Part shown: piece by piece, positions 27,121 to 44,100 of the stretch
Position numbering within the stretch: the first letter of the stretch is position 1
Layout: every line of letters starts with the position of its first letter
Source: Escherichia coli
Lineage (GTDB): Bacteria; Pseudomonadota; Gammaproteobacteria; Enterobacterales; Enterobacteriaceae
NCBI RefSeq assembly: GCF_048403405.1
Contig: NZ_CP183129.1
Reading direction: 5' to 3' (one strand)
DNA length: 64,000 nt
The notes under the pieces: generated by a model
Told to the model about the DNA's origin: nothing
The model's input: the letters and a program-made list of their open reading frames with translations, nothing else
Databases searched by the model: none
Position numbers and translations under genes: made by a program

Positions 27121-28770
27121 TTAACCGCGCCACGCTTTATAGCGGTTAATCAGACCATTGGTCGAGCTATCGTGGCTGCTGATTTCTTTGTCATCTTTCA
27201 GCTCTGGCAGAATACGGTTCGCCAGCTGTTTACCCAGTTCCACGCCCCACTGGTCGAAGGTGAAGATGTTCAGGATCACGCCCTGAGTAAAGATTTTGTG
27301 CTCATACAGCGCAATCAACGCACCCAGGCTGAACGGAGTGATTTCACGCAGCAGGATGGAGTTGGTCGGGCGGTTACCTTCGAACACTTTGAACGGCACC
27401 ACGTAGTCAAGCGTTGCCGGATCTTTACCCTGATCACGATATTCCTGCTCAACCACTTCGCGGGATTTACCAAACGCCAGCGCTTCGGTCTGAGCAAAGA
27501 AGTTAGACAGCAGTTTCTGGTGATGATCAGAAAGCGGGTTATGGGTGATAGCCGGAGCGATGAAATCGCACGGTACCATTTTGGTTCCCTGGTGGATCAG
27601 CTGGTAGAACGCGTGCTGACCGTTCGTGCCGGGTTCACCCCAGATAATCGGGCCAGTCTGGTAATTCACGACGTTACCGTTACGGTCAACGTACTTACCG
27701 TTGGACTCCATATTGCCCTGCTGGAAGTACGCCGCGAAACGGTGCATATACTGGTCATACGGCAGAATCGCTTCAGTTTCCGCACCAAAGAAATTGTTGT
27801 ACCAGATGCCAATCAGCGCCAGCAGTACAGGCAGGTTTTTCTCGGCAGGCGTGGTGGAGAAATGCTTGTCCATCGCGTGTGCGCCAGAAAGCAGTTCAAC
27901 GAAGTTATCAAAGCCGATGGAGAGAACAATCGACAGGCCAATCGCTGACCATAAAGAGTAACGACCACCGACCCAGTCCCAGAACTCGAACATGTTGGCG
28001 GTATCAATACCAAACTCGCCAACGGCTTTGGCGTTGGTTGAGAGCGCCGCAAAGTGTTTCGCAACGTGTTTTTCATCACCAGCCGCTTTCAGGAACCAGT
28101 CACGCGCACTATGGGCGTTGGTCATGGTTTCCTGAGTGGTGAAGGTTTTAGATGCTACCAGGAACAGCGTGGTTTCCGGGTTTACTTTTTTCAGCACTTC
28201 CGCGATGTGAGTCCCATCGACGTTAGAAACAAAGTGCATGTTCAGGTGGTTTTTGTACGGACGCAGTGCTTCGGTCACCATGTATGGGCCGAGGTCAGAA
28301 CCGCCGATCCCGATGTTCACTACGTCAGTGATTGCTTTGCCGGTATAACCCTTCCACTCACCGGAAATAATCGCTTGCGAGAAGGTTTTCATCTTCTCCA
28401 GCACCGCGTTGACTTCCGGCATAACGTCTTTGCCATCAACCAGAATCGGGGTATTGCTACGGTTACGCAGCGCTACGTGCAGCACGGCGCGGTTTTCGGT
28501 GCGGTTGATCTTCTCACCAGAGAACATCGACTTAATCGCGCCCGCCAGATCGCACTCTTTCGCCAGATCTTGTAATTTCGCCAGCGTCTCTTCAGTGATG
28601 CGGTTTTTGGAGTAATCCACCAGCATCTGATCGTCGAAGGTTGCGGAGAACTTAGAAAAACGATCGCCGTCTTTAGCAAAAAGATCGGCGATCGTAACGT
28701 CTTTCATTTCATCGAAGTGTTTCTGTAGTGCCTGCCAGGCAGCGGTCTGCGTTGGATTGATGTTTTTCAT
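27121..28770 (-). CDS. pgi: Glucose-6-phosphate isomerase
   Basis: [41 protein letters not shown]... 549 aa; track ORF trimmed by two codons. Confidence 0.95.
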
Positions 28771-29015
28771 TAGCAATACTCTTCTGATTTTGAGAATTGT
28801 GACTTTGGAAGATTGTAGCGCCAGTCACAGAAAAATGTGATGGTTTTAGTGCCGTTAGCGTAATGTTGAGTGTAAACCCTTAGCGCAGTGAAGCATTTAT
28901 TAGCTGAACTACTGACCGCCAGGAGTGGATGAAAAATCCGCATGACCCCATCGTTGACAACCGCCCCGCTCACCCTTTATTTATAAATGTACTACCTGCG
29001 CTAGCGCAGGCCAGA

Positions 29016-29200
29016 AGAGGCGCGTTGCCCAAGTAACGGTGTTGGAGGAGCCAGTCCTGTGATAACACCTGAGGGGGTGCATCGCCGAGGTGATTGAACG
29101 GCTGGCCACGTTCATCATCGGCTACAGGGGCTGAATCCCCTGGGTTGTCACCAGAAGCGTTCGCAGTCGGGCGTTTCGCAAGTGGTGGAGCACTTCTGGG
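29016..29200 (+). ncRNA. Lysine riboswitch (L-box) in the lysC leader
   Basis: Leader contains conserved L-box segments AGAGGCGC, GGAGGAGCC and TGCATCGCCGAGGTGA about 100-280 nt upstream of the lysC ATG. Boundaries are approximate. Confidence 0.7.
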
Positions 29201-29294
29201 TGAAAATAGTAGCGAAGTATCGCTCTGCGCCCACCCGTCTTCCGCTCTTCCCTTGTGCCAAGGCTGAAAATGGATCCCCTGACACGAGGTAGTT

Positions 29295-30644
29295 ATGTCT
29301 GAAATTGTTGTCTCCAAATTTGGCGGTACCAGCGTAGCTGATTTTGACGCCATGAACCGCAGCGCTGATATTGTGCTTTCTGATGCCAACGTACGTTTAG
29401 TTGTTCTCTCGGCTTCTGCTGGTATCACTAATCTGCTGGTCGCTTTAGCTGAAGGACTGGAACCTGGCGAGCGATTCGAAAAACTCGACGCAATCCGCAA
29501 TATCCAGTTTGCCATTCTGGAACGTCTGCGTTACCCGAACGTTATCCGTGAAGAGATTGAACGTCTGCTGGAGAACATTACTGTTCTGGCAGAAGCGGCG
29601 GCGCTGGCAACGTCTCCGGCGCTGACAGATGAACTGGTCAGCCACGGCGAGCTGATGTCGACCCTGCTGTTTGTCGAAATCCTGCGCGAACGCGATGTTC
29701 AGGCACAGTGGTTTGATGTACGTAAAGTGATGCGTACCAACGACCGATTTGGTCGTGCAGAGCCAGATGTAGCCGCGCTGGCGGAACTGGCCGCGCTGCA
29801 GCTGCTCCCACGCCTCAATGAAGGCTTAGTGATCACCCAGGGATTTATCGGTAGCGAAAATAAAGGTCGGACAACGACGCTTGGCCGTGGAGGCAGCGAT
29901 TATACGGCAGCCTTGCTGGCGGAGGCTTTACACGCATCTCGTGTTGATATCTGGACCGACGTCCCGGGCATCTACACCACCGATCCACGCGTGGTTTCCG
30001 CAGCAAAACGCATTGATGAAATCGCGTTTGCCGAAGCGGCAGAGATGGCAACTTTTGGTGCAAAAGTACTGCATCCGGCAACGTTGCTACCCGCAGTACG
30101 CAGCGATATCCCGGTCTTTGTCGGCTCCAGTAAAGACCCACGCGCAGGTGGTACGCTGGTGTGCAATAAAACTGAAAATCCGCCGCTATTCCGCGCGCTG
30201 GCGCTTCGTCGCAATCAGACTCTGCTCACTTTGCACAGCCTGAATATGCTGCATTCTCGCGGTTTCCTCGCGGAAGTTTTCGGCATCCTCGCGCGGCATA
30301 ATATTTCGGTAGACTTAATCACCACGTCAGAAGTGAGCGTGGCATTAACCCTTGATACCACCGGTTCAACCTCCACTGGCGATACCTTGCTGACGCAATC
30401 TCTGCTGATGGAGCTGTCTGCACTATGCCGGGTAGAAGTGGAGGAAGGTCTGGCGCTGGTCGCGTTGATTGGCAATGACCTGTCAAAAGCCTGCGGCGTT
30501 GGCAAAGAGGTATTCGGCGTACTGGAACCGTTCAACATTCGCATGATTTGTTACGGCGCATCCAGCCATAACCTGTGCTTCCTGGTGCCCGGCGAAGATG
30601 CCGAGCAGGTGGTGCAAAAACTGCATTTTAATTTGTTTGAGTAA
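29295..30644 (+). CDS. lysC: Lysine-sensitive aspartokinase III
   Basis: MSEIVVSKFGGTSVADFDAMNRSADIVLSDANVRLVVLSASAGITN... 449 aa with C-terminal ACT domains. Confidence 0.95.
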   Translation: MSEIVVSKFGGTSVADFDAMNRSADIVLSDANVRLVVLSASAGITNLLVALAEGLEPGERFEKLDAIRNIQFAILERLRYPNVIREEIERLLENITVLAEAAALATSPALTDELVSHGELMSTLLFVEILRERDVQAQWFDVRKVMRTNDRFGRAEPDVAALAELAALQLLPRLNEGLVITQGFIGSENKGRTTTLGRGGSDYTAALLAEALHASRVDIWTDVPGIYTTDPRVVSAAKRIDEIAFAEAAEMATFGAKVLHPATLLPAVRSDIPVFVGSSKDPRAGGTLVCNKTENPPLFRALALRRNQTLLTLHSLNMLHSRGFLAEVFGILARHNISVDLITTSEVSVALTLDTTGSTSTGDTLLTQSLLMELSALCRVEVEEGLALVALIGNDLSKACGVGKEVFGVLEPFNIRMICYGASSHNLCFLVPGEDAEQVVQKLHFNLFE

Positions 30645-30653
30645 ACACAGTAT

Positions 30654-30695
30654 GGCCCGGAAGACATTATTTCGGGCCGTATTGTTTTTCTTGTC
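30654..30695 (+). terminator. Possible intrinsic terminator after lysC
   Basis: ggcccg...cgggcc stem followed by gtattgtttttctt; the loop is large, so this is weak. Confidence 0.4.
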
Positions 30696-30897
30696 ATTAT
30701 GCTCATCAATAAACGAGCCTGTACTCTGTTAACCAACGTCTTTATCGGAGAATAATTGCCTTTAATTTTTTTATCTGCATCTCTAACTAATTAGAGAAAG
30801 AGATAAATAGTTAAGAGAAGGCAAAATGAATATTATCAGTTCTGCTCGCAAACGAATTCCCGTACACTGAACTCTCTGGCTCACTGAGGGCACAATC

Positions 30898-31170
30898 ATG
30901 GCACTCCCCCGTATTACCCAAAAAGAGATGACTGAACGCGAGCAGCGTGAACTAAAAACACTGCTGGATCGGGCGCGGATTGCGCATGGTCGCGTGTTGA
31001 CTAATTCGGAAACCAACAGCATTAAAAAAGAGTACATCGATAAGCTGATGGTTGAGCGTGAAGCAGCAGCAAAAAAAGCCCGCCAATTGAAGAAAAAGCA
31101 GGCTTATAAACCGGATCCTGAAGCGTCATTTAGCTGGTCAGCAAATACGTCGACGCGCGGCAGGCGCTGA
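30898..31170 (+). CDS. yjbD: Small basic protein YjbD (DUF3811)
   Basis: MALPRITQKEMTEREQRELKTLLDRARIAHGRVLTNSETNSIKKEY... 90 aa. Confidence 0.85.
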   Translation: MALPRITQKEMTEREQRELKTLLDRARIAHGRVLTNSETNSIKKEYIDKLMVEREAAAKKARQLKKKQAYKPDPEASFSWSANTSTRGRR

Positions 31171-32043
31171 TTAACGCCCCTTCTTTTTACGCCCCGGCGA
31201 GGTAAAACGCTTACCGTTGGACGCCGGGCGACCGCCTTTTTCCGCCGTTTTTTCCATCTTAACGACTGGACGTTTGATGCCCGCCGTTTTCGGTTTGGCC
31301 TTCGTTTTAGGTTTTGCCTCGGAAGAGGAATTTTCGATGAGCTTAAAGAGGTCGATTAACTCATCGTCAGTTAAATCGCGCCACTCACCCAGCGGAATGC
31401 CGCTTAAGCTGACGTTCATAATGCGCGTACGTTCCAGCTTTTTCACTTCGTAACCAAAGTGCTCGCACATGCGCCGGATCTGACGGTTCAGCCCCTGCAC
31501 CAGGGTAATGCGGAAGACAAACGGCGCTTCTTTTTTGACTTTGCACTTTTTCGTCACCGTCCCGAGGATCGGCACCCCCGCCCCCATACCACGAATAAAT
31601 TCATCGGTAATCGGTTTATCGACCGTCACCAGATACTCTTTCTCATGATCGTTACCCGCACGGAGGATCTTATTCACCAGATCGCCGTGATTGGTGAGGA
31701 AAATCAGCCCCTGGGAGTCTTTATCCAGGCGGCCAATCGGGAACACGCGTTTGCTGTGGTTAACGAAATCGACAATGTTATCGCGCTCGCCATCTTCGGT
31801 GGTGCTGACAATACCGACGGGCTTGTTCAGGGCGATAAGTACCAAATCTTCGGCTTCCCGAGGCTCAATCAACTGACCGTTTACTTTCACAACGTCGCCG
31901 GGTTTCACCTGATCGCCAATGGTGGCTCGCTTGCCATTAAGGAACACATTGCCTTGCTCGATATAGCGATCCGCTTCGCGGCGTGAGCAAATTCCGCTTT
32001 CGCTGATGTATTTATTTAAACGGACTGATGAGTCGGGCAGCAT
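31171..32043 (-). CDS. rluF: 23S rRNA pseudouridine synthase F
   Basis: [39 protein letters not shown]... with S4 and RluA-type catalytic domains and a Lys-rich tail; 290 aa. Confidence 0.9.
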
Positions 32044-32390
32044 AAATTCTCCTGTAAAACGCGGAATATACCGTACCTCTTAGCGGGGAAAAACAGGGTT
32101 ATGCGGCAACGTCGAAATTAAATGTGATCTGCCACGCCTTTTATCACAAAAGTGTCTCCGGAAGTACGATGCAAATTTGCCTGGCAAAATAAGGATAATC
32201 AACATATTACGAATCGCTGCACACCTGTGCTGATGACTACTACGCAGAGAAACAAATGTGCAAGAGAAAGCGCTATTTCTCCCCATGCAAAGAGTGAAAA
32301 ATCGCTTTGAAAGGCCATCATGATGGGGTTATATCAGATCAAGCGGTGAGAAAGCGTATTTGCACAAATGTGCAGAACCAGGAGGCGGCA

Positions 32391-33338
32391 ATGGAAAACA
32401 GTGACGATATCCGTTTGATTGTGAAGATTGCCCAACTCTATTACGAACAGGATATGACGCAGGCGCAAATCGCGCGCGAACTGGGTATTTACCGCACCAC
32501 CATCAGCCGCTTGCTTAAACGAGGCCGCGATCAGGGAATTGTCACCATCGCCATCAACTATGACTACAACGAAAATCTCTGGCTGGAGCAGCAACTGAAG
32601 CAAAAGTTTGGCCTGAAAGACGTTGTGGTGGTGTCGGGAAATGATGAGGATGAAGAGACTCAACTGGCGATGATGGGGTTACACGGCGCGCAACTGCTGG
32701 ATCGCTTGCTGGAGCCTGGCGATATTGTCGGTTTTTCCTGGGGTCGCGCGGTGAGCGCACTGGTTGAAAACTTGCCGCAGGCGGGGCAATCGCGGCAGTT
32801 AATCTGCGTACCAATTATTGGCGGACCGTCCGGTAAACTCGAAAGCCGCTATCACGTAAACACATTAACCTACAGCGCGGCAGCGAAGCTGAAAGGGGAA
32901 TCGCATCTCGCAGATTTTCCGGCTCTGCTGGATAACCCCTTAATTCGTAATGGGATCATGCAGTCTCAGCACTTTAAAACCATCTCTGCCTACTGGGATA
33001 ATCTGGATGTCGCCCTGGTGGGAATTGGCTCACCGGCCATTCGCGACGGCGCTAACTGGCATGCGTTTTATGGTGGTGAAGAGAGTGACGACCTGAATGC
33101 CCGCCAGGTTGCTGGCGATATTTGCTCGCGCTTTTTTGATATTCACGGCGCAATGGTTGAAACGAATATGAGCGAAAAAACACTCTCTATCGAAATGAAT
33201 AAATTAAAGCAGGCGCGGTATTCCATTGGCATTGCCATGAGTGAAGAAAAATACAGCGGAATTGTTGGTGCACTGCGTGGAAAATATATTAATTGTCTGG
33301 TAACGAATAGCAGCACAGCTGAACTATTACTGAAATAA
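32391..33338 (+). CDS. sorC: SorC-family transcriptional regulator of the sorbose operon
   Basis: MENSDDIRLIVKIAQLYYEQDMTQAQIARELGIYRTTISRLLKRGRDQGIV... (HTH plus sugar-binding domain); ATG at 32391 preceded by AGGAGG; 28-codon track extension trimmed. Confidence 0.8.
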   Translation: MENSDDIRLIVKIAQLYYEQDMTQAQIARELGIYRTTISRLLKRGRDQGIVTIAINYDYNENLWLEQQLKQKFGLKDVVVVSGNDEDEETQLAMMGLHGAQLLDRLLEPGDIVGFSWGRAVSALVENLPQAGQSRQLICVPIIGGPSGKLESRYHVNTLTYSAAAKLKGESHLADFPALLDNPLIRNGIMQSQHFKTISAYWDNLDVALVGIGSPAIRDGANWHAFYGGEESDDLNARQVAGDICSRFFDIHGAMVETNMSEKTLSIEMNKLKQARYSIGIAMSEEKYSGIVGALRGKYINCLVTNSSTAELLLK

Positions 33339-33407
33339 AAATCTTCCCGATGTTTACCGTAATAAAAATTACGGCGGGTCCCTATTATCTAAAATCAGGA
33401 GTCTGTT

Positions 33408-34214
33408 ATGCAAACGTGGTTAAATTTGCAGGATAAAATCATTATCGTCACCGGCGGCGCATCCGGTATTGGTCTGGCGATTGTAGAGGAATTATTAGCA
33501 CAAGGCGCAAACGTACAGATGGTAGATATTCACGGTGGCGATGGTCAATATGAAGGTCATAAAGGCTATCAGTTTTGGCCGACCGATATTTCCAGCGCCA
33601 AAGAGGTAAATCATACGGTAGCGGAAATTATCCAGCGTTTTGGTCGCATCGACGGTCTGGCCAATAACGCCGGGGTCAATTTCCCGCGTCTGCTGGTCGA
33701 TGAGAAAGCGCCTGCCGGGCAGTATGAACTCAACGAAGCTGCATTCGAAAAAATGGTCAATATCAACCAGAAAGGCGTTTTTCTGATGTCGCAGGCGGTG
33801 GCGCGACAGATGGTCAAACAACATGATGGCGTGATTGTGAATGTTTCCTCAGAAAGTGGGCTGGAAGGCTCAGAAGGCCAAAGCTGTTACGCCGCGACCA
33901 AAGCCGCGCTCAATAGCTTCACGCGCTCCTGGTCGAAAGAGCTGGGTAAGCACGGTATCCGTGTGGTCGGTATCGCGCCAGGGATTCTGGAAAAAACAGG
34001 ACTGCGCACGCCGGAATATGAAGAAGCGCTGGCGTGGACGCGCAATATCACCGTCGAGCAGCTGCGTGAAGGCTATACCAAAAATTCCATTCCTATTGGG
34101 CGCGCCGGAAGATTAGCAGAAGTGGCTGATTTTGTTTGTTATCTGCTGTCTGAACGCGCCAGCTATATCACCGGAGTAACCACTAACATTGCAGGCGGCA
34201 AAACGCGCGGCTAA
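33408..34214 (+). CDS. sorD: Short-chain dehydrogenase (D-glucitol-6-phosphate dehydrogenase-like)
   Basis: SDR signatures TGGASGIGLA (Rossmann fold) and YAATKAA (YxxxK); 268 aa. Confidence 0.85.
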   Translation: MQTWLNLQDKIIIVTGGASGIGLAIVEELLAQGANVQMVDIHGGDGQYEGHKGYQFWPTDISSAKEVNHTVAEIIQRFGRIDGLANNAGVNFPRLLVDEKAPAGQYELNEAAFEKMVNINQKGVFLMSQAVARQMVKQHDGVIVNVSSESGLEGSEGQSCYAATKAALNSFTRSWSKELGKHGIRVVGIAPGILEKTGLRTPEYEEALAWTRNITVEQLREGYTKNSIPIGRAGRLAEVADFVCYLLSERASYITGVTTNIAGGKTRG

Positions 34215-34223
34215 GGAGGCTTT

Positions 34224-34631
34224 ATGGTCAATGCCATTTTTTGCGCCCACGGCAAATTAGCCTGCGCCATGCTGGAATCGGTTCAGATGGTGTACGGCGA
34301 TGCCAGGGTCGAGGCAGTTGAATTTGTGCCCGGCGAGAACGCCGGAGACATTGTGGCAAAGCTGGAGAAGTTAGTGAGCATTCACAATCATGGCGAGTGG
34401 CTAATTGCCGTGGATTTACAGTGCGGTAGCCCGTGGAATGCAGCAGCGACGCTTGCGATGCGCAATCCGCACCTGCGGGTGATCAGCGGCCTTTCCCTGC
34501 CACTGGCGCTCGAACTGGTTGATAACCAGGACAGCATGAATGTTGATGAACTGTGTGAACACCTGACGCAAATCGCAAAGCAAACCTGCGTTGTCTGGAA
34601 ACAACTGGCAACAGCGGAGGAGGATTTCTGA
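34224..34631 (+). CDS. sorF: PTS mannose-family EIIA component (sorbose)
   Basis: MVNAIFCAHGKLACAMLESVQMVYGD... with an N-proximal His as in ManX IIA; 135 aa. Confidence 0.85.
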   Translation: MVNAIFCAHGKLACAMLESVQMVYGDARVEAVEFVPGENAGDIVAKLEKLVSIHNHGEWLIAVDLQCGSPWNAAATLAMRNPHLRVISGLSLPLALELVDNQDSMNVDELCEHLTQIAKQTCVVWKQLATAEEDF

Positions 34632-35125
34632 TGAACATTACGCTCGCCCGCATTGATGACCGCCTGATCCACGGTCAGGTCACTACCGTCTGGTCGAAAG
34701 TGGCTAACGCCCAGCGCATTATTATCTGCAATGACGAAGTTTATAACGATGAAGTTCGCCGGACATTATTGCGTCAGGCTGCGCCACCGGGAATGAAGGT
34801 TAACGTGGTCAATATTGAAAAAGCCGTCGCGGTTTATCACAACCCGCAATATCAGGACGAAACCGTTTTTTATCTTTTCACTCGCCCACAGGATGCCTTA
34901 GCGATGGTTCGCCAGGGGGTAAAAATAGACACCCTGAATATTGGCGGCATGGCCTGGCGGCCCGGTAAAAAACAGTTAACCAAAGCGGTTTCATTAGATG
35001 ATGATGATATTAACGCATTTTATGAGTTAAATAATCTTGGCGTCATACTGGATTTACGCGTCGTAGCGTCAGATCCCTCAATCAATATTATCGACAAAAT
35101 AAACGAACAGTTAATCGCAAATTAA
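34631..35125 (+). CDS. sorB: PTS mannose-family EIIB component (sorbose)
   Basis: MNITLARIDDRLIHGQVTTVWSK..., the RIDDRLIHGQ phospho-His motif of IIB-Man; 164 aa. Confidence 0.85.
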   Translation: MNITLARIDDRLIHGQVTTVWSKVANAQRIIICNDEVYNDEVRRTLLRQAAPPGMKVNVVNIEKAVAVYHNPQYQDETVFYLFTRPQDALAMVRQGVKIDTLNIGGMAWRPGKKQLTKAVSLDDDDINAFYELNNLGVILDLRVVASDPSINIIDKINEQLIAN

Positions 35126-35190
35126 ATAATAGCGCCTGTGTACATATGCTTTAACAGGCAGGGATGACGACACTTAAAAGGTGACAAATC

Positions 35191-35988
35191 ATGGAAATAA
35201 GTACCCTACAAATCATTGCTATATTTCTTTTTTCCTGTATTGCCGGAATGGGCAGCGTGCTGGATGAATTTCAGACTCATCGCCCGTTAATTGCCTGTAC
35301 GGTGATTGGTTTAATTCTCGGTGATTTAAAAACCGGAATAATACTCGGTGGTACGCTGGAATTGATAGCTCTCGGCTGGATGAACGTCGGCGCGGCGCAA
35401 TCTCCAGATTCTGCACTCGCCAGCATAATCTCCGCCATTCTGGTTATCGTTGGTCAGCAAAGCATCGCCACCGGAATCGCCATCGCGTTGCCTGTGGCTG
35501 CGGCAGGCCAGGTGCTGACGGTGTTTGCCCGTACCATCACAGTAGTGTTCCAGCACGCGGCGGATAAAGCAGCAGAAGAGGCGCGGTTTCGCACTCTCGA
35601 TATTCTGCATGTCTCCGCGCTTGGCGTGCAGGCGCTGCGCGTTGCTATTCCGGCACTGATTGTCTCGCTGTTCGTCAGCGCCGATATGGTCAGCAATATG
35701 TTAAACGCCATTCCCGAATTTGTGACCCGAGGACTACAGATTGCTGGCGGTTTTATCGTGGTGGTCGGTTACGCCATGGTGCTACGTATGATGGGCGTGA
35801 AATATTTGATGCCTTTCTTTTTCCTCGGTTTCCTCGCAGGTGGCTACCTCGATCTCAGTCTGCTGGCGTTCGGTGGCGTCGGCGTGATCATGGCCCTGCT
35901 CTACATCCAGCTAAATCCACAGTGGCGTAAAGCTGAACCTCAACTCCAGGCCACCGCCTCCACCGCCCTTGACCAACTTGACGATTAA
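35191..35988 (+). CDS. sorA: PTS mannose-family EIIC component (sorbose)
   Basis: 265 aa hydrophobic protein following IIB in the operon. Confidence 0.85.
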   Translation: MEISTLQIIAIFLFSCIAGMGSVLDEFQTHRPLIACTVIGLILGDLKTGIILGGTLELIALGWMNVGAAQSPDSALASIISAILVIVGQQSIATGIAIALPVAAAGQVLTVFARTITVVFQHAADKAAEEARFRTLDILHVSALGVQALRVAIPALIVSLFVSADMVSNMLNAIPEFVTRGLQIAGGFIVVVGYAMVLRMMGVKYLMPFFFLGFLAGGYLDLSLLAFGGVGVIMALLYIQLNPQWRKAEPQLQATASTALDQLDD

Positions 35989-35998
35989 CGGAGCCATC

Positions 35999-36823
35999 AT
36001 GGAACAGAGAAAAATTACACGCAGCGATCTGGTGAGCATGTTTCTGCGCTCCAACCTGCAACAGGCGTCCTTTAACTTTGAACGTATTCACGGGCTGGGT
36101 TTTTGCTACGACATGATCCCCGCCATCAAGCGACTTTACCCATTAAAAGAGGATCAGGTTGCGGCGCTCAGGCGACACCTGGTGTTCTTCAATACCACGC
36201 CAGCCGTATGTGGCCCGGTCATCGGCGTCACTGCCGCCATGGAAGAGGCGCGGGCCAACGGCGCGGAAATTGATGACGGTACCATTAACGGCATCAAAGT
36301 CGGTCTGATGGGACCATTGGCAGGAGTTGGCGATCCACTGGTCTGGGGAACGCTGCGCCCGATTACCGCCGCGCTCGGCGCATCTCTGGCACTTTCGGGC
36401 AACATTCTCGGCCCGCTGCTGTTTTTCTTTATTTTCAATGCGGTGCGTCTGGCGATGAAGTGGTATGGCCTACAGCTCGGCTTTCGCAAAGGGGTGAATA
36501 TCGTCAGCGATATGGGCGGGAATGTGCTGCAAAAACTCACCGAAGGCGCGTCGATTCTCGGACTGTTTGTGATGGGCGTGCTGGTGACCAAATGGACGTC
36601 AATCAACGTACCGTTGGTGGTTTCACAAACGCATGCCGCCGATGGCTCCACCGTCACCATGACCGTGCAGAACATTCTCGACCAACTTTGCCCTGGTTTG
36701 CTGGCGCTCGGTCTGACGCTACTGATGGTTCGTCTGCTCAACAAAAAAATTAACCCGGTATGGCTGATTTTCGCCCTGTTTGGCTTAGGGATTATCGGCA
36801 ATGCGCTGGGCTTCCTGTCCTGA
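35999..36823 (+). CDS. sorM: PTS mannose-family EIID component (sorbose)
   Basis: MEQRKITRSDLVSMFLRSNLQQASFNFERIHGLGFCYDM... typical IID-Man N-terminus; ATG at 35999 preceded by GGAG; 274 aa. Confidence 0.85.
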   Translation: MEQRKITRSDLVSMFLRSNLQQASFNFERIHGLGFCYDMIPAIKRLYPLKEDQVAALRRHLVFFNTTPAVCGPVIGVTAAMEEARANGAEIDDGTINGIKVGLMGPLAGVGDPLVWGTLRPITAALGASLALSGNILGPLLFFFIFNAVRLAMKWYGLQLGFRKGVNIVSDMGGNVLQKLTEGASILGLFVMGVLVTKWTSINVPLVVSQTHAADGSTVTMTVQNILDQLCPGLLALGLTLLMVRLLNKKINPVWLIFALFGLGIIGNALGFLS

Positions 36824-36874
36824 TTCTTCGCCCCGGCACGACTGCCGGGGCCATCGCTCAACATGAGGTGGTTT

Positions 36875-38104
36875 ATGAAAACAACAGCTCTGCGTCTTTA
36901 TGGTAAACGTGATTTACGCCTGGAAACCTTTGATCTTCCTGAAATGCAGGAGGATGAAATCCTCGCGACGGTGGTCACCGACAGCCTGTGCCTCTCTTCC
37001 TGGAAAGAGGCCAATCTGGGTGAAAATCATAAAAAAGTACCCGACGATGTGGCGACCAACCCCATCATCATCGGCCACGAGTTTTGCGGCGATATTCTGG
37101 CCGTGGGTAAAAAGTGGCAGCACAAATTCCAGCCGGGTCAGCGTTATGTGATTCAGGCCAACCTGCAACTCCCCGACCGCCCGGACTGCCCCGGCTACTC
37201 CTTCCCGTGGGTAGGCGGCGAAGCGACGCATGTGGTTATTCCCAACGAGGTCATGGAACAAGATTGCCTGCTGGCATACGACGGCGAAACCTATTTTGAA
37301 GGCTCGCTGGTTGAACCGCTTTCCTGCGTGATTGGCGCGTTCAACGCCAACTATCATCTTCAGGAAGGTAGTTATAACCACACGATGGGGATTCGCCCGC
37401 AAGGGCGCACGCTGATCCTCGGCGGCACCGGACCAATGGGACTGTTGGCGATTGATTATGCGTTGCATGGACCGGTTAACCCGTCGCTGCTCGTCATTAC
37501 CGATACCGACAACGACAAATTGAGTTATGCGCGCAAGCACTATCCATCAGAACCGCAAACACTGATTCATTATCTCAATGCCGCCGATGCAGCATTTGAT
37601 ACGTTAATGGCACTGAGTGGCGGTCACGGCTTCGATGATATTTTCGTCTTTGTGCCTAATGAAGGACTGGTGACTCTCGCCTCTTCCTTGCTGGCGACAG
37701 ATGGTTGCCTGAATTTCTTCGCCGGACCGCAGGATAAACATTTCAGCGCGCCAATTAATTTCTACGATGTGCATTATGCATTTACCCACTACGTGGGCAC
37801 GTCAGGCGGCAATACCGATGACATGCGCGCAGCAGTCAAATTGATTGAAGAGAAAAAAGTGCAGGCCGCAAAAGTGGTAACACATATTCTTGGGCTGAAT
37901 GCCGCGGGCGAAACCACGCTTGAATTGCCTGCCGTCGGCGGCGGCAAAAAGCTGGTGTATACCGGGAAATACCTGCCGCTTATGTCACTCACGCAGATTC
38001 AGGATCAAGCACTGGCGGCAATTCTGGCGCGTCATCAGGGGATCTGGTCCGGTGAGGCGGAGCAATATCTGCTCACTCATGCAGAGGCAATTTCCCATGA
38101 TTAA
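36875..38104 (+). CDS. sorE: Zinc-dependent medium-chain dehydrogenase (L-sorbose-1-phosphate reductase-like)
   Basis: MKTTALRLYGKRDLRLETFDLPE... MDR/ADH family (GHEFCGDI) with a GxGxxG-like nucleotide site (LGGTGPMG); ATG at 36875 with RBS GAGGTGG. Confidence 0.8.
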   Translation: MKTTALRLYGKRDLRLETFDLPEMQEDEILATVVTDSLCLSSWKEANLGENHKKVPDDVATNPIIIGHEFCGDILAVGKKWQHKFQPGQRYVIQANLQLPDRPDCPGYSFPWVGGEATHVVIPNEVMEQDCLLAYDGETYFEGSLVEPLSCVIGAFNANYHLQEGSYNHTMGIRPQGRTLILGGTGPMGLLAIDYALHGPVNPSLLVITDTDNDKLSYARKHYPSEPQTLIHYLNAADAAFDTLMALSGGHGFDDIFVFVPNEGLVTLASSLLATDGCLNFFAGPQDKHFSAPINFYDVHYAFTHYVGTSGGNTDDMRAAVKLIEEKKVQAAKVVTHILGLNAAGETTLELPAVGGGKKLVYTGKYLPLMSLTQIQDQALAAILARHQGIWSGEAEQYLLTHAEAISHD

Positions 38105-38263
38105 TCGCGCTACTTAACTCTGCATGTCGCTGGCTGGTCGCCGCGGCAACTTCGCGACCGGATGTGCGGCTGATTGCTGAAGCAGCACAATTTGCATGAG
38201 AAGGATAAAAAATATCAGCGCCTTAAGGGGCGCTCAAATTGGTGGCAAAGTACACATTGTTTA

Positions 38264-38364
38264 TGCCGGATGCGGAATGAAGCCTTATTCGGCATACATA
38301 ATCTCGAAAATTCAATATATTGCAGTTATCTGGTAGGACTGGTAAGCGTAGCGCATCAGGCAAT
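38264..38364. repeat. REP/BIME pair between sorE and pepE
   Basis: tgccggatgcggaatgaagccttattcggcatac and inverted gtaggactggtaagcgtagcgcatcaggca. Confidence 0.6.
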
Positions 38365-38485
38365 GCTGTGTTTGTCATCAGTCTCAGCGCCCGGTGCAAT
38401 ACGTGACATCGTGAGCCATGTCAGTAAGTGGTTAAATTCGCAGTGGTAGCATGCCTCCCGTGATTTCTTACTAACCGGAGAAGTA

Positions 38486-39175
38486 ATGGAACTGCTTTTA
38501 TTGAGTAACTCGACGCTGCCGGGTAAAGCCTGGCTGGAACATGCACTGCCGCTAATTGCTGAACAGTTGCAGGGTCGCCGTTCAGCGGTGTTTATCCCTT
38601 TCGCTGGCGTAACGCAGACCTGGGATGATTACACAGCGAAAACGGCTGCGGTTCTCGCTCCGCTGGGTGTTTCTGTCACCGGTATTCATAGCGTTGTCGA
38701 TCCCGTTGCCGCGATTGAAAATGCTGAGATCGTGATTGTCGGCGGCGGTAATACTTTCCAGTTGCTGAAACAGTGCCGCGAGCGCGGGCTGCTGGCACCA
38801 ATTACTGACGTGGTGAAACGTGGCGCGCTGTATATTGGCTGGAGCGCAGGCGCTAACCTTGCTTGCCCAACCATTCGTACCACCAACGATATGCCGATTG
38901 TCGATCCGCAAGGTTTCGATGCGCTAAATCTGTTCCCGCTGCAAATCAACCCGCACTTCACCAACGCGCTGCCGGAAGGTCATAAAGGTGAAACCCGTGA
39001 ACAGCGTATTCGCGAACTGCTGGTCGTCGCGCCAGAACTCACAATTATTGGTCTGCCGGAAGGTAACTGGATCACAGTGAGTAAAGGTCACGCAACGCTG
39101 GGTGGCCCGAACACCACTTATGTGTTTAAGGCTGGTGAAGAAGCGGTTCCGCTGGAAGCGGGTCACCGTTTTTAA
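38486..39175 (+). CDS. pepE: Peptidase E (alpha-aspartyl dipeptidase)
   Basis: [41 protein letters not shown]... 229 aa. Confidence 0.9.
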
Positions 39176-39181
39176 GTGAAT

Positions 39182-39255
39182 TGCCGGATGCATGATCCGG
39201 CATCTTGTACATAGTGCCTGATGCGACGCTTTACATGTCTTATCAGGCCTTCAGG
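39182..39255. repeat. REP-like palindromic units / terminator region between pepE and yjbB
   Basis: Hairpin tgccggatgcatgatccggca and REP-like gcctgatgcgacgctttacatgtcttatcaggcc. Confidence 0.5.
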
Positions 39256-39264
39256 GTCACGGTA

Positions 39265-40896
39265 TTAATACTCGTCCCGTCCTTCATCTTCATCCGGCTG
39301 TTCCAGCACACTGTAAGCCACCGAACAAAACAGCGAGTTCAGACGCTGCATATCTCCCAGTAAGCCTAAATGTAGCGAACTGGTTTCAATACTCTGCACG
39401 TTTTGCTGGTGCAGGCGATCGACGTGGGCGTGAGAATAGCGGCGATTAAGAATGCGAAAACGATGTTTGCTGCGGCGCAAACGACGGGCGCTGGTAACAT
39501 CGCCAGAGAAGAAAACCGACATTGCCAGTTTTAAATTACTGAGCAATTGCTCATAGAGCGCATCCAGTTCCTTCAAGCCATCAAGCGAAAATGCTCGCCT
39601 TGCAGCCAGCGATTTGTCGGCAATTTCGCTGCCCATGCGCTCGACGATATCGGAGGCCTGCTCAAGGTTAAGCGACATTTCGATGATCTCCGCCCAGCGA
39701 CGCGACTCTTCCTCCGCCAGCTCTTCTTTTGGCATTCGCGCCAGATACAGCTTAATGGCGGTGTAGAGAACGTTGATATCATCTGCCAGCTTACGCAGCT
39801 CTTTCTCCTGCCGTGGCTCGCCGTGCATCACTTTATTCAACCCTTCCATCATCTGTTCCATGGCGTCGCCAATGCGCAGGGTTTCGCGCGCGGCGTTCGC
39901 CAGAGCAAGCGTGGGCGTATCCAGCGCGCTGACATCCAGATGTTTAGGCCGTAGCTGGGTATCCAGTTCCGGTTCATCGCGAATAATCGTTTTGCAAAAC
40001 CGTGCCATCGGGTCAACAAATGGCAGCATGACCAGGCAACGTACAAGGTTGTAGAAGACATGGAAATAGATCACCAGTTCCGCTTTTGGCAATGACAACT
40101 TCCCCATTGTCTCTGCCAGCAAATGGACAAACGGCAGGATAATCAGGCTACCCACCAGCTTAAACAGCAGACTACCCAGCGCGACACGGCGGGCTGCGGC
40201 ATTGGCGGCACTGTTGTTGAGCATCGCCAGCAGGCCGGAACCGAGGTTAGCACCAATCACCAGACAGAGCGCCACGGGGAAGGAGATAATGCCTGCAGCG
40301 GTCAGAGTCGCGGTCAGCAGTACAGCAGCAAGGCTGGAGTAGCTGATAATGGCGAACATCGCGCCAATCAGCGCATCCAGCAGAATGTCACCCGTCAGCG
40401 AGGCAAAGATCACCTGAACGCCGTTTGCCTGGGTGATCGGCGTTACGGCCTGCACAATCAACTCCAGCGCCAGCAAAATCAACCCAAGACCAATACCGAC
40501 GCGGCCCAGTTGCCCGGCGCGTGACTGTTTGCGTCCGAGGAAAAAAATCACGCCGATAAAAATAAGTAATGGTGACAGCCAGGATAAATCGAAGGTGAGA
40601 ATACGCGCCATTAGCGCCGTCCCGACATCTGCACCCAGCACAATCACCAGAGCCGGTGCGAGGGCTACCAGATCCTGAGCGACGAACGAGGTCACCAGCA
40701 TGGTGGTGGCATTACTGCTCTGTACCAGTGCGGTAACGCCGATCCCCGCGCAAAAGGCGAGCGGCTTTTTTTCGACGCTCCGGCTAAGGACAGTACGCAA
40801 ACGCGCGCCGAAGACGCGCATTACGCCGGTTCGAACAATATGCGTCCCCCAGACCAGCAGGGCGACGGCAGAAAGCAGGTGAAGCAGCGTTAACAC
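39265..40896 (-). CDS. yjbB: Na+/phosphate cotransporter family membrane protein
   Basis: 543 aa; N-terminal polytopic membrane domain plus a C-terminal PhoU-like domain. Confidence 0.9.
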   Translation of the reverse strand: MLTLLHLLSAVALLVWGTHIVRTGVMRVFGARLRTVLSRSVEKKPLAFCAGIGVTALVQSSNATTMLVTSFVAQDLVALAPALVIVLGADVGTALMARILTFDLSWLSPLLIFIGVIFFLGRKQSRAGQLGRVGIGLGLILLALELIVQAVTPITQANGVQVIFASLTGDILLDALIGAMFAIISYSSLAAVLLTATLTAAGIISFPVALCLVIGANLGSGLLAMLNNSAANAAARRVALGSLLFKLVGSLIILPFVHLLAETMGKLSLPKAELVIYFHVFYNLVRCLVMLPFVDPMARFCKTIIRDEPELDTQLRPKHLDVSALDTPTLALANAARETLRIGDAMEQMMEGLNKVMHGEPRQEKELRKLADDINVLYTAIKLYLARMPKEELAEEESRRWAEIIEMSLNLEQASDIVERMGSEIADKSLAARRAFSLDGLKELDALYEQLLSNLKLAMSVFFSGDVTSARRLRRSKHRFRILNRRYSHAHVDRLHQQNVQSIETSSLHLGLLGDMQRLNSLFCSVAYSVLEQPDEDEGRDEY

Positions 40897-41059
40897 GAGT
40901 TCAGGTTCTCCTTATCGTTATATGTTCCTGAAGCAATTGAATGACCAAAGGACCGGAAACACGCTGACTGGCATCTTTACTGTGCCTTTTGACCTTCGTT
41001 TTTCCGGCTAAGATTATTCCAGCCTGATTCCAGTATAAGTGTTTCATATTAATAAAGAG

Positions 41060-41084
41060 ACAGGGCACTCATTGAGCGCCCTGT
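41060..41084 (-). terminator. Intrinsic terminator after metH
   Basis: Hairpin cagggcgctcaatgagtgccctg with a T-rich tract on the minus strand about 30 bp past the metH stop. Confidence 0.5.
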
Positions 41085-41115
41085 TTGTTGTAAGGAAAAG
41101 TGACAGATTTGTGAA

Positions 41116-44100
41116 TCAGTCCGCGTCATACCCCAGATTCGGTGCCAGCCAGCGCTCAACATCTGAGACGCTCATACCTTTACGGCGGGCATAGTCTTCA
41201 ACCTGATCGCGCTGGATTTGCGCCACCGCGTAATACTTGCTGTCCGGGTGGCTGAAGTACCAACCCGAAACCGATGCACCAGGCCACATGGCGAAAGATT
41301 CTGTGAGTTTCATGCCAGTGTGTTTTTCCACTTCCAGCAGCTCCCAGATGGTGGCTTTTTCCGTATGTTCCGGGCAGGCCGGATAGCCCGGTGCCGGACG
41401 GATGCCCTGGTAGTTTTCGCGGATCAGTTCTTCGTTGCTGAGGTTCTCGTTCGGCGCATAGCCCCAGTAGACTTTACGCACACGCTCATGGAGATACTCC
41501 GCAAAGGCTTCGGCTAAACGGTCGGCAAGCGCTTTCACCATGATTTTGTTGTAATCATCGTGCTGCGCTTCAAAGGCATCAGCCAGTGCGTCCTCTTCCA
41601 GCCCGCCAGTCACGGCAAATGCGCCGATGTAATCTGCTTTACCAGAAAGCTTCGGCGCAACGAAGTCAGCGAGACAGTAGTTAGCGAAGCCGGTTTTTTC
41701 GGTCTGTTGACGCAGATGGTGGCTGACGTTGATCACATGGGTGCGCGTTTCGTCACGGTAGATTTCAATGTCATCGCCCACACGGTTTGCCGGGAACAGC
41801 CCCACCACGCCACGCGGATTCAGCGTTTTTTCGGCGCTTAATTTATCCAGCATGTCATTGGCGTCTTTAAACAGACGCTGCGCCTCAACGCCCACCACTT
41901 CATCTTCCAGAATGCGCGGATACTTCCCGGCCAGCGACCAGGTCATAAAGAACGGTGTCCAGTCGATGTAATTACGCAGCGTTTCGATGCTGGCTTCGAC
42001 TTCCTGCACGCCGAGACGGTGCGCCACCGGCGGCGTGTAAGCCTGCCAGTCAAAAGCGAAGTCGTTATCACGCGCCGCTTCCAGCGTGACCGGTGGTGTG
42101 CGTGGTTTCTTGCGCCCGTGCTGAATACGCACGGTTTCGTACTCCTTGCGGGTACGAGCAACGAAATCATCGCGCTGAGTGTCGGAAAGCAGCGCCGCCA
42201 CCACACCAACGGTGCGCGAAGCGTTCTGCACATACACCGTCGGGCCGCTGTAGTTTTGCTCGATCTTCACCGCCGTGTGTGCTTTAGAGGTGGTCGCGCC
42301 GCCAATCAGTAACGGAATGGTGAAGCCCTGACGCTCCATCTCTTTCGCCACGTTAACCATCTCGTCCAGCGACGGCGTGATAAGCCCCGAAAGTCCAATC
42401 AGATCAGCATTCACTTCTTTAGCGGTACGGAGAATTTTTTCCGCAGGCACCATAACGCCGAGATCGACAATTTCGTAGTTGTTACATTGCAGCACCACAC
42501 CAACGATATTTTTACCGATGTCGTGGACGTCGCCCTTCACGGTGGCGATCACCATCTTGCCGTTGGTTTTGCCCTGCTCTTTGCTGGCTTCAATAAACGG
42601 TTCGAGGTAGGCCACCGCCTGCTTCATCACACGCGCCGATTTGACCACCTGTGGCAGGAACATTTTCCCTTCGCCAAACAGATCGCCGACCACGTTCATG
42701 CCGTCCATTAGCGGGCCTTCAATCACCTGAATAGGGCGCTCCGCCTGCAGGCGGGCTTCTTCGGTGTCCTGCTCGATAAACTCGGTAATGCCTTTGACCA
42801 GCGAGTATTCCAGACGTTTATTCACTTCCCACGAGCGCCACTCCGCCTGCTGGGCGTTAGCGGTGTCGTCGGTTTTGCTGCCGCGATATTTCTCGGCAAG
42901 CTCCAGTAAACGCTCAGTGCCATCGTCGCGACGGTTAAGAATCACATCTTCCACCGCGTCGCGCAGTTCAGCGGGTAGGTCGTCGTAAATCGCCAGCTGC
43001 CCGGCGTTGACGATCCCCATATCCATGCCATTGCGAATAGCGTAGTAGAGGAACACCGCGTGAATGGCTTCGCGCACCGGATCGTTGCCACGGAATGAGA
43101 AAGAAACGTTAGATACGCCGCCGGAGATCAGCGCGTGCGGCAGTTCGCGTTTGATGTCTTCACACGCGCCGATAAAATCCTGTGCGTAGTTGTTGTGCTC
43201 TTCAATGCCAGTTGCGACCGCGAAGATGTTCGGGTCGAAGATGATATCTTCTGGCGGGAAGCCAACTTCTTCGGTGAGGATTTTGTACGCCCGACGGCAA
43301 ATCTCGATTTTCCGTGCGCGGGTATCGGCCTGCCCCTGTTCGTCAAAGGCCATTACCACAACTGCCGCACCGTAACGACGCAACAATTTCGCGTGATGGA
43401 TAAAAGCGTCGACGCCTTCTTTCATTGAAATAGAGTTAACAATGCCTTTGCCCTGGATACACTTCAGACCTTTTTCAATGACATCCCATTTTGAGGAGTC
43501 GATCATAATCGGCACGCGAGCGATATCCGGTTCACCGGCAATCAGATTGAGAAAACGCACCATCGCCGCTTCGGCGTCGAGCATCCCTTCATCCATATTG
43601 ATATCGATAATCTGCGCGCCGTTTTCCACCTGCTGGCGGGCCACATCCAGTGCCTCGCTGTATTTCTCTTCTTTGATCAGGCGCTTGAACTTAGCGGAAC
43701 CGGTGACGTTGGTGCGTTCACCCACGTTCACAAACAGGCTATCTTCGCCAATGTTCAGCGGCTCCAGGCCGGACAAACGGCAGGCTACGGGGATTTCCGG
43801 CAGTTTGCGCGGCGCTAATCCTTCTACTGCACGACTCATCGCGGCAATATGTTGTGGCGTGGTGCCACAGCAGCCGCCGACGATATTGAGAAAGCCCGCT
43901 TGCGCCCATTCACGTATTTGTTTTGCCATCGTGTCGGCGTCGAGATCGTACTCACCAAAGGCGTTGGGTAGCCCGGCGTTCGGGTGCGCGGTGACGTAGC
44001 ATTCCGCAATCCGTGATAATTCCTGCACGTACTGGCGCAGTTCGTCTGGCCCCAGCGCACAGTTAAGGCCGAAAGTCAGCGCTTCGGCGTGGCGCAGAGA

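Follow-up and report, generated by a model that had tools for sequence, protein, structure and literature searches.

What lies between rluF and pepE in an Escherichia coli chromosome where these two genes are not direct neighbors, and how did it come to be there? In E. coli K-12 MG1655 the two genes are 211 bp apart and no sor genes separate them (see also PMC2808357). In the stretch of 64,000 nucleotides analyzed here (contig NZ_CP183129.1, hereafter the window), positions 32044-38485 run exactly from the base next to the start codon of rluF (minus strand, 32043) to the base before that of pepE (38486), and this gap is filled by seven intact plus-strand open reading frames (ORFs; 32391-38104) that are separated by short spacers or overlap by 1 nt. 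The interval very probably holds an intact chromosomal L-sorbose utilization operon, sorCDFBAME, that is an old resident of the site and that K-12-type genomes have lost. The original prediction for this DNA described a complete same-strand seven-gene cassette, missing from K-12, whose gene content marks a known rather than a new system. The cassette and its absence from K-12 are borne out, and the operon has indeed been described in E. coli (PMC2808357, PMC12817954, PMC13410766). The word complete holds for the seven sor genes and not for the operon as a whole, which appears to be a seven-gene derivative of an eight-gene ancestor with a relic of sdhL after sorE. Earlier publications already describe the operon, where it lies, how it is distributed among phylogroups and what it does; the present analysis contributes evidence that favors an origin of the polymorphism by loss over one by gain, the relic of sdhL, and several conserved sites that are candidates for regulation.

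Identity of the sor genes

Gene names and starts follow the RefSeq annotation (Prokaryotic Genome Annotation Pipeline, PGAP) of 100%-identical DNA in E. coli strain 4621, which places the sorC start at ATG 32391 instead of an upstream TTG at 32307 and the sorE start at 36875 instead of 36863. On one strand, the order of regulator, short-chain dehydrogenase/reductase (SDR), enzymes IIA, IIB, IIC and IID (EIIA to EIID) of a phosphotransferase system (PTS) and medium-chain dehydrogenase/reductase (MDR) is the published sorCDFBAME order, and all seven ORFs are full length next to their orthologues in 27 loci. The strongest identifications come from two proteins that could be set against characterized counterparts. 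The sorC product (32391-33338, 315 aa), a SorC/DeoR-type (SorC-family) regulator with an N-terminal helix-turn-helix and a sugar-phosphate-binding domain, aligns with Klebsiella pneumoniae SorC (PDB 2w48) from residues 1-315 to 1-315 with 611 bits and ~86% identity, and on the identical DNA it is annotated as a sugar-binding transcriptional regulator. The sorB product (34631-35125, 164 aa), the sorbose-specific EIIB (TIGR00854, 223 bits), matches the K. pneumoniae IIB-Sor protein (PDB 1nrz) with 303.6 bits and ~85% identity, as opposed to 170 bits for the mannose IIB domain, and it keeps the RIDDRLIHGQV motif with the phosphorylatable His. For both proteins the best matches are therefore the Klebsiella sorbose proteins and not those of another PTS.

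The other genes complete the same picture through family models. SorD (33408-34214, 268 aa) is an SDR-type D-glucitol (sorbitol)-6-phosphate dehydrogenase (NF004817, 497.6 bits, cutoff 304) whose translation contains the TGxxxGxG and YxxxK motifs. SorF (34224-34631, 135 aa) is a mannose-family EIIA (TIGR00824, 144.8 bits, cutoff 98), SorA (35191-35988, 265 aa) an EIIC (TIGR00822, EII-Sor, 424 bits, cutoff 340) and SorM (35999-36823, 274 aa) an EIID (TIGR00828, 472 bits, cutoff 293), such that all four EII components, including the family-specific IID, score above the cutoffs of their models (TIGR00824, TIGR00854, TIGR00822 and TIGR00828). The last gene, sorE (36875-38104, 409 aa), is named L-sorbose-1-phosphate reductase by PGAP on the identical DNA and encodes an MDR/polyol-dehydrogenase-like protein with the Pfam domains ADH_N and ADH_zinc_N. 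Among solved structures it is closest to sorbitol dehydrogenases and a ketose reductase, it matches curated NCBIfam families only weakly, and a Cys39/His68/Glu69 pattern in the translation suggests that it would be zinc-dependent. The similarity of SorC and SorB to the Klebsiella proteins, together with the name given to sorE, identifies the gene content as that of the known L-sorbose operon.

What would these proteins do? The steps are taken from knowledge of the Klebsiella and E. coli sor systems, as summarized in PMC13410766 and PMC12817954. SorF and SorB would relay phosphate that originates from phosphoenolpyruvate and passes through enzyme I and HPr, and the EII complex of SorF, SorB, SorA and SorM, in which SorA and SorM provide the EIIC and EIID components, would import L-sorbose with concomitant phosphorylation to L-sorbose-1-phosphate. 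SorE would then reduce L-sorbose-1-phosphate to D-glucitol-6-phosphate, and SorD would oxidize the latter to D-fructose-6-phosphate, which would enter glycolysis. SorC, the product of the first gene, would act as both repressor and activator of the operon in response to sorbose.

Probable ancestral residence and loss of the operon

Within E. coli the site is essentially two-state and thus a strain-variable junction, as had been proposed. Among 5,426 complete genomes, 2,865 carry the cassette (counted as genomes holding at least 80% of a 6.7-kb query) and 2,557 have the K-12-type empty site (counted where that site is present as one piece, mostly at ≥99% identity), which is one uniform allele throughout. 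Strain 4621 matches the window at 100% identity, and O157:H7, O55:H7, O111:H8 and other genomes match it at 97-99%; overall the cassette is 97-100% identical among E. coli, which corresponds to a divergence of up to ~3%, similar to core DNA. Published counts place sor in >86% of the genomes of each phylogroup except A (9.6%) and B1 (12.1%), and it is mainly in these two phylogroups that K-12-type, sor-negative genomes are found (PMC12817954).

Alignment of the rluF-pepE interval with K-12 defines the endpoints of this polymorphism. The rluF-proximal spacer is common to both alleles from 32044 to 32080, where homology stops, and homology restarts at ~38396-38405, such that the pepE-proximal spacer (38396-38485) is again shared. 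Between these points lies a sor-linked segment of ~6.3 kb (32081-38395) in the window and 93 bp in K-12 (positions 1682-1774 of the extracted K-12 locus). The alleles thus diverge 37 bp upstream of rluF and converge again ~81-90 bp upstream of pepE, which gives each flanking gene a different upstream region in the two alleles. The origin of the 93 bp was sought in all fetched loci by blastn-short and by Smith-Waterman alignment with shuffled controls, and the first ~20 bp resemble the rluF-proximal sor intergenic region of Citrobacter with borderline support (score 20, best shuffle 18).

How old is the operon at this position? A scan with SorE over one genome per species returned 80 loci, onto which thirteen local proteins were mapped. 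The order yjbD-rluF-sorCDFBAME-(sdhL)-pepE and/or yjbB, in the same orientation, is present in 27 of these loci from at least eight genera. They include E. whittamii, an Escherichia cryptic-clade strain and a divergent E. coli, five Klebsiella (the K. oxytoca group and K. indica), three Pseudocitrobacter, six Citrobacter, four Raoultella, several 'Enterobacter sp.' and Cedecea. In E. albertii and a further two Citrobacter loci the left side is missing and sorE-sdhL-pepE is seen, and in Erwinia, Pantoea and Mangrovibacter the operon is found at another location. Across the loci the identities of the Sor proteins track those of the flanking genes; in K. grimontii, for example, SorC and SorE are 87% and 86% identical to the window proteins, next to 93% for RluF, 90% for PepE and 90% for YjbB.

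These comparisons bear on the notion of an accessory island with insertion endpoints, which is correct insofar as the operon is accessory within E. coli. That the cassette was acquired horizontally and inserted into a K-12-like empty spacer in an ancestor of this strain would fit the fact that K-12 and 47% of complete E. coli genomes lack it, the presence in K-12 of ~60-70 bp without counterpart in the sor loci, and the ~10% of phylogroup A and B1 genomes that carry sor, which suggests that some re-acquisition by recombination has taken place (PMC12817954). However, an insertion of this kind is improbable given that the operon occupies the same position and orientation in at least eight genera with flank-like divergence, and that its divergence within E. 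coli is like that of core genes. The usual signs of mobility were also looked for: no integrase- or transposase-like ORF was found between 30000 and 41000 by review of ORFs, models and annotation, ARAGORN returned no tRNA in 28000-42000, the two junctions have no direct repeat (the longest word common to both is 4-5 nt), and the GC content of the sor-linked segment (0.512) is typical of the window (0.510). A mobile island was rejected on the basis of the cross-genus synteny, the lack of mobility genes, tRNA and junction repeats, and the typical GC content.

The reading that best fits the empty site is one of ancestral presence followed by a single loss on the way to the K-12-type genomes and by later recombinational exchange. 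The operon would be an old Enterobacteriaceae resident of the rluF-pepE site that first had eight genes, with an overlap between sdhL and the stop codon of sorE. A 701-nt internal deletion would have inactivated sdhL in the majority of sor-positive E. coli, this strain included, and in K-12-type genomes one event would have removed the entire cluster and left behind the uniform 211-bp spacer. One recent paper calls it open how strains 'acquired' the operon, and the present data favor ancestral presence with loss from K-12-type genomes.

Several points weigh against an intact sorbose operon of ancestral residence as a whole. The remaining ~60-70 bp of the K-12 spacer (~1700-1765) match nothing in any fetched sor locus, which goes beyond a simple deletion and is possibly explained by filler DNA or by replacement with the allele of a sor-negative relative. 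Recombination through the conserved flanks could in principle also produce the same position across genera, and the comparison was made among sor-bearing loci, with Salmonella and other sor-negative outgroups outside it. With respect to identity, characterized proteins served as references for SorC and SorB only, the assignments of SorE, SorD, SorF, SorA and SorM being drawn from family models and annotation. Finally, sorbose use by the operon of this strain is a prediction from its genes, the use itself having been shown in other E. coli strains.

The operon also has more distant relatives. The sorC-D-F-B-A-M-E order recurs in Enterococcus crotali and E. ureilyticus, with 60-73% protein identity for most genes, and the bee-gut symbiont Gilliamella has sorFBAME followed by sorC with no adjoining sorD, an arrangement in which the regulation is rearranged.

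An eighth gene, sdhL, and its relic

The E. coli strain E67 has an additional gene of 270 codons after sorE (7698-8510 of the E67 locus) with shikimate-dehydrogenase domains and a match to NF009202. The intact SdhL protein is ~68% identical to Haemophilus influenzae SdhL (HI0607, PDB 1npy) over 268 residues, and weaker structural relatives include 5-ketofructose reductase (PDB 7cok). The sdhL ATG lies inside the end of sorE (CATGATTAA) and overlaps the sorE stop codon. The gene is intact, with 269-270 codons, in all 27 loci checked for it, which come from Escherichia, Pseudocitrobacter, Citrobacter, Klebsiella, Raoultella, Enterobacter sp. and Serratia sp., and it is retained in only 177 of the 5,426 E. 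coli genomes. This count is consistent with the reported restriction to ST648 (PMC12817954): in that work sdhL was found in sequence type (ST) 648, where it is co-induced by sorbose, and not in ST131 or the other sequence types studied. The same paper places sdhL 'upstream' of the operon, whereas in the sequences compared here it lies downstream of sorE.

What remains of sdhL in the window is a stretch of 112 nt (38097-38208, plus strand), recognized by alignment with the intact gene of E67, E. whittamii and others. Its first part (38097-38154) corresponds to sdhL codons 1-19, with codon 7 changed from CAA to TAA, and its second part (38155-38208) to the last ~54 nt of the gene including the stop codon; 701 nt of internal sequence are deleted between the two halves. 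No full-length ORF of ~270 aa with Shikimate_dh_N and NAD(P)-binding domains is present in the window, and sdhL here is, as read from its sequence, a non-working pseudogene relic. Since each of the listed sor-positive E. coli except E67 aligns to the window in a single piece, they share this architecture.

The SdhL class of shikimate-dehydrogenase-like enzymes is not known to have an established physiological substrate. The conserved coupling of sorE and sdhL, together with the reported co-induction by L-sorbose in ST648, suggests a sorbose-linked role. Taking the ancestral enterobacterial sor operon to be an eight-gene unit, we tentatively propose, while regarding it as rather doubtful, that the SdhL substrate belongs to sorbose-linked ketose or polyol metabolism and not to the shikimate pathway. 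The comparison also shows the usual seven-gene form in E. coli to be a decayed eight-gene operon, and this gives an orphan enzyme class a testable genomic context.

Candidate regulatory sites upstream of sorC

How might transcription of the operon be controlled? The candidate sites described here derive solely from columns that are invariant in an alignment of the rluF-sorC intergenic region from 11 genera, and all are given on the plus strand. A conserved upstream block at 32123-32154 reads TGTGATC ... CCTTT ... ACAAAAGTG and is a candidate regulatory site of CRP-like or SorC type. Further toward sorC there follow an inverted repeat, GCACA-N3-GTGC (32219-32230), and a TGTGC/GCACA motif, CAAATGTGCAA (32253-32263). 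The invariant block GGTTATATCAGAT (32327-32339), which contains TATATC, may represent the -10 region of a sor promoter, although it was not flagged by the consensus scan; across 31900-38600, consensus scans for promoters and terminators did not exceed shuffled sequence in their number of matches, and they returned none upstream of sorC. The last element is a perfect palindrome, TGCACAAATGTGCA (32361-32374), that lies just 5' of the sorC ribosome-binding site, is invariant in the 11 genera apart from one single-base change in Pseudocitrobacter, and has a single exact copy in the window. The TGTGCA-type motifs, including this palindrome, are candidate SorC operators, and the palindrome would serve in autoregulation.

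Predicted sorbose use in this strain

Published work links the operon to L-sorbose in E. coli carriers. Enteroaggregative E. coli (EAEC) 042, in which the operon adjoins rluF, grows on L-sorbose, and MG1655, which lacks it, does not (PMC2808357). In ST131 and ST648, L-sorbose induces the seven sor genes more strongly than any others, and both knock-outs of sorE and sorAM and a knock-in into an ST10 strain alter competitive fitness (PMC12817954). ST131 uses sorbose although it lacks sdhL (PMC12817954), which indicates that the seven-gene form is sufficient. The presence of the operon would place the strain studied here among the sorbose-positive, non-K-12-like E. coli.

One hypothesis is that the operon is present yet cryptic in this strain, for example through a regulatory defect. 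Function in this strain is deduced from sequence, and the adjoining sdhL is already a pseudogene, which is a sign of decay at the locus. However, none of the seven sor ORFs is broken or truncated, the window retains the regulatory blocks that are conserved across genera, and thousands of genomes have the same architecture, ST131-type sorbose users among them (PMC12817954), so that a non-functional operon is very unlikely. An alternative hypothesis, that the PTS and the two dehydrogenases act on mannose, fructose, fructosamine or another ketose and carry the sor label by homology, could draw on the generic mannose/fructose/sorbose character of the NCBIfam IIA-IID models and on the weak matches of SorE to curated families, but it is scarcely credible and was rejected in view of the 303 bits of the IIB protein to Klebsiella IIB-Sor against 170 bits to IIB-Man, the ~86% identity to Klebsiella SorC, and the genetic and omics evidence from E. 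coli carriers (PMC12817954, PMC2808357).

Downstream region, repeats and flanking genes

The pepE-proximal end of the interval had been proposed to carry a REP (repetitive extragenic palindromic) pair at about 38264-38364 that marks the boundary. The pair is real, but it lies inside sor-linked DNA and is not the junction. It sits in a 169-bp segment (38223-38391) bounded by an 8-bp direct repeat, TCAGCGCC (38215-38222 and 38384-38391), and the sor-positive strain E67 lacks this segment and has one copy of TCAGCGCC. The left arm (38264-38298, plus strand) is a decayed Y-type REP that fails a consensus scan allowing 3 mismatches, and it is accepted as a REP only because its orthologues in E. whittamii, Escherichia sp. 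MOD1 and E. coli SCPM-O-B-8794 are canonical Y-type copies (GCCGGATGCGGCGTGAACGCCTTATCCGGCCTAC). The right arm (38333-38362, minus strand), inverted to the left, is a Z2-type REP with 2 mismatches to GCCTGATGCGCTACGCTTATCAGGCCTAC, for which 0 chance matches are expected; the two inverted arms read TGCCGGATGCG and CGCATCAGGCA. The consensus sequences are those we take to be standard for these REP types, and the other copies in the window agree with them. In the RefSeq feature table of K-12, no REP is entered for this region. Judged by its arms and their orthologues, the pair is a genuine, partly decayed bacterial interspersed mosaic element (BIME). Its absence from sor-positive E67 marks the BIME as a separate indel within sor-linked DNA; it stops a few bases short of the point where K-12 homology returns and is distinct from the joint between the two alleles.

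Other repeats were observed in the window and at related loci. A sister pair of Y- and Z2-type REPs with the same ~35-nt linker as the 38264-38362 pair is located at 10561-10685 (Y-type copy at 10586), and a further single Y-type REP at 19307-19340. In Citrobacter sp. Cu233 (~5025-5150), Enterobacter sp. JUb54 (~4935-5150) and K. indica (~4870-5000), an insertion of ~125-215 bp lies between rluF and the sor regulatory region; these insertions look like ERIC-type (enterobacterial repetitive intergenic consensus) repeats, a further sign that the spacer tolerates small repeat elements.

Just after the sdhL relic, the terminator scan returned a GC-rich hairpin, AGCGCC-TTAAGG-GGCGCT (38217-38234), which is possibly the end of the sor transcript and is terminator-like on the minus strand only. 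No Rfam family was matched in a scan of 30600-39400. Several Citrobacter and K. spallanzanii have 2-8 kb of additional DNA between sdhL and pepE, which makes the pepE-proximal side a variable spot across genera.

Both flanking core genes score far above the cutoffs of their equivalog models, and both are named in the annotation of the 100%-identical strain 4621 DNA. The left one, rluF (31171-32043, minus strand; NF007784, 607 bits), encodes a 23S rRNA pseudouridine synthase and the right one, pepE (38486-39175, plus strand; NF003642, 357 bits), dipeptidase E. In the window the yjbD stop codon abuts that of rluF (31168-31173). K-12 has 132 bp extra between yjbD and rluF (640-771 of the extracted K-12 locus) that comprise a GC-rich palindromic repeat, CCCCTCACCCTAACCC...GGGGCGAGGGG, and this difference is a second small indel polymorphism near the sor site.

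Comparison with known systems

The sor operon of Klebsiella has been characterized since the early 1990s. The operon in the window has the same seven genes in the same order, and the same inferred pathway, as the K. pneumoniae sorCDFBAME operon of the Lengeler laboratory, with SorC of 315 aa and SorB of 164 aa. Loci of the Klebsiella group (K. oxytoca, K. grimontii, K. michiganensis and others) differ by an intact eighth gene, sdhL, of which the window has the relic only. In terms of the SdhL class represented by HI0607 (PDB 1npy), the gene of these intact relatives is thus a member, whereas the window retains a remnant with a premature stop.

Among E. coli, the closest counterparts are the sor operons of EAEC 042, ST131, ST648 and CFT073, which occupy the same rluF-adjoining locus with the same seven genes (PMC2808357, PMC12817954, PMC13410766). 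The window has the common seven-gene form, with sdhL deleted as in ST131, and not the eight-gene form of ST648 and E67. The mannose PTS (manXYZ) and the N-acetylgalactosamine PTS (aga) of E. coli belong to the same PTS family (TC 4.A.6) with IIA, IIB, IIC and IID components. In the window, by contrast, IIA and IIB are two separate polypeptides, scores against the equivalog models for ManX and Aga do not reach the cutoffs, and the PTS genes are linked to those of SorE and SorD and not to mannose or aga catabolic genes.

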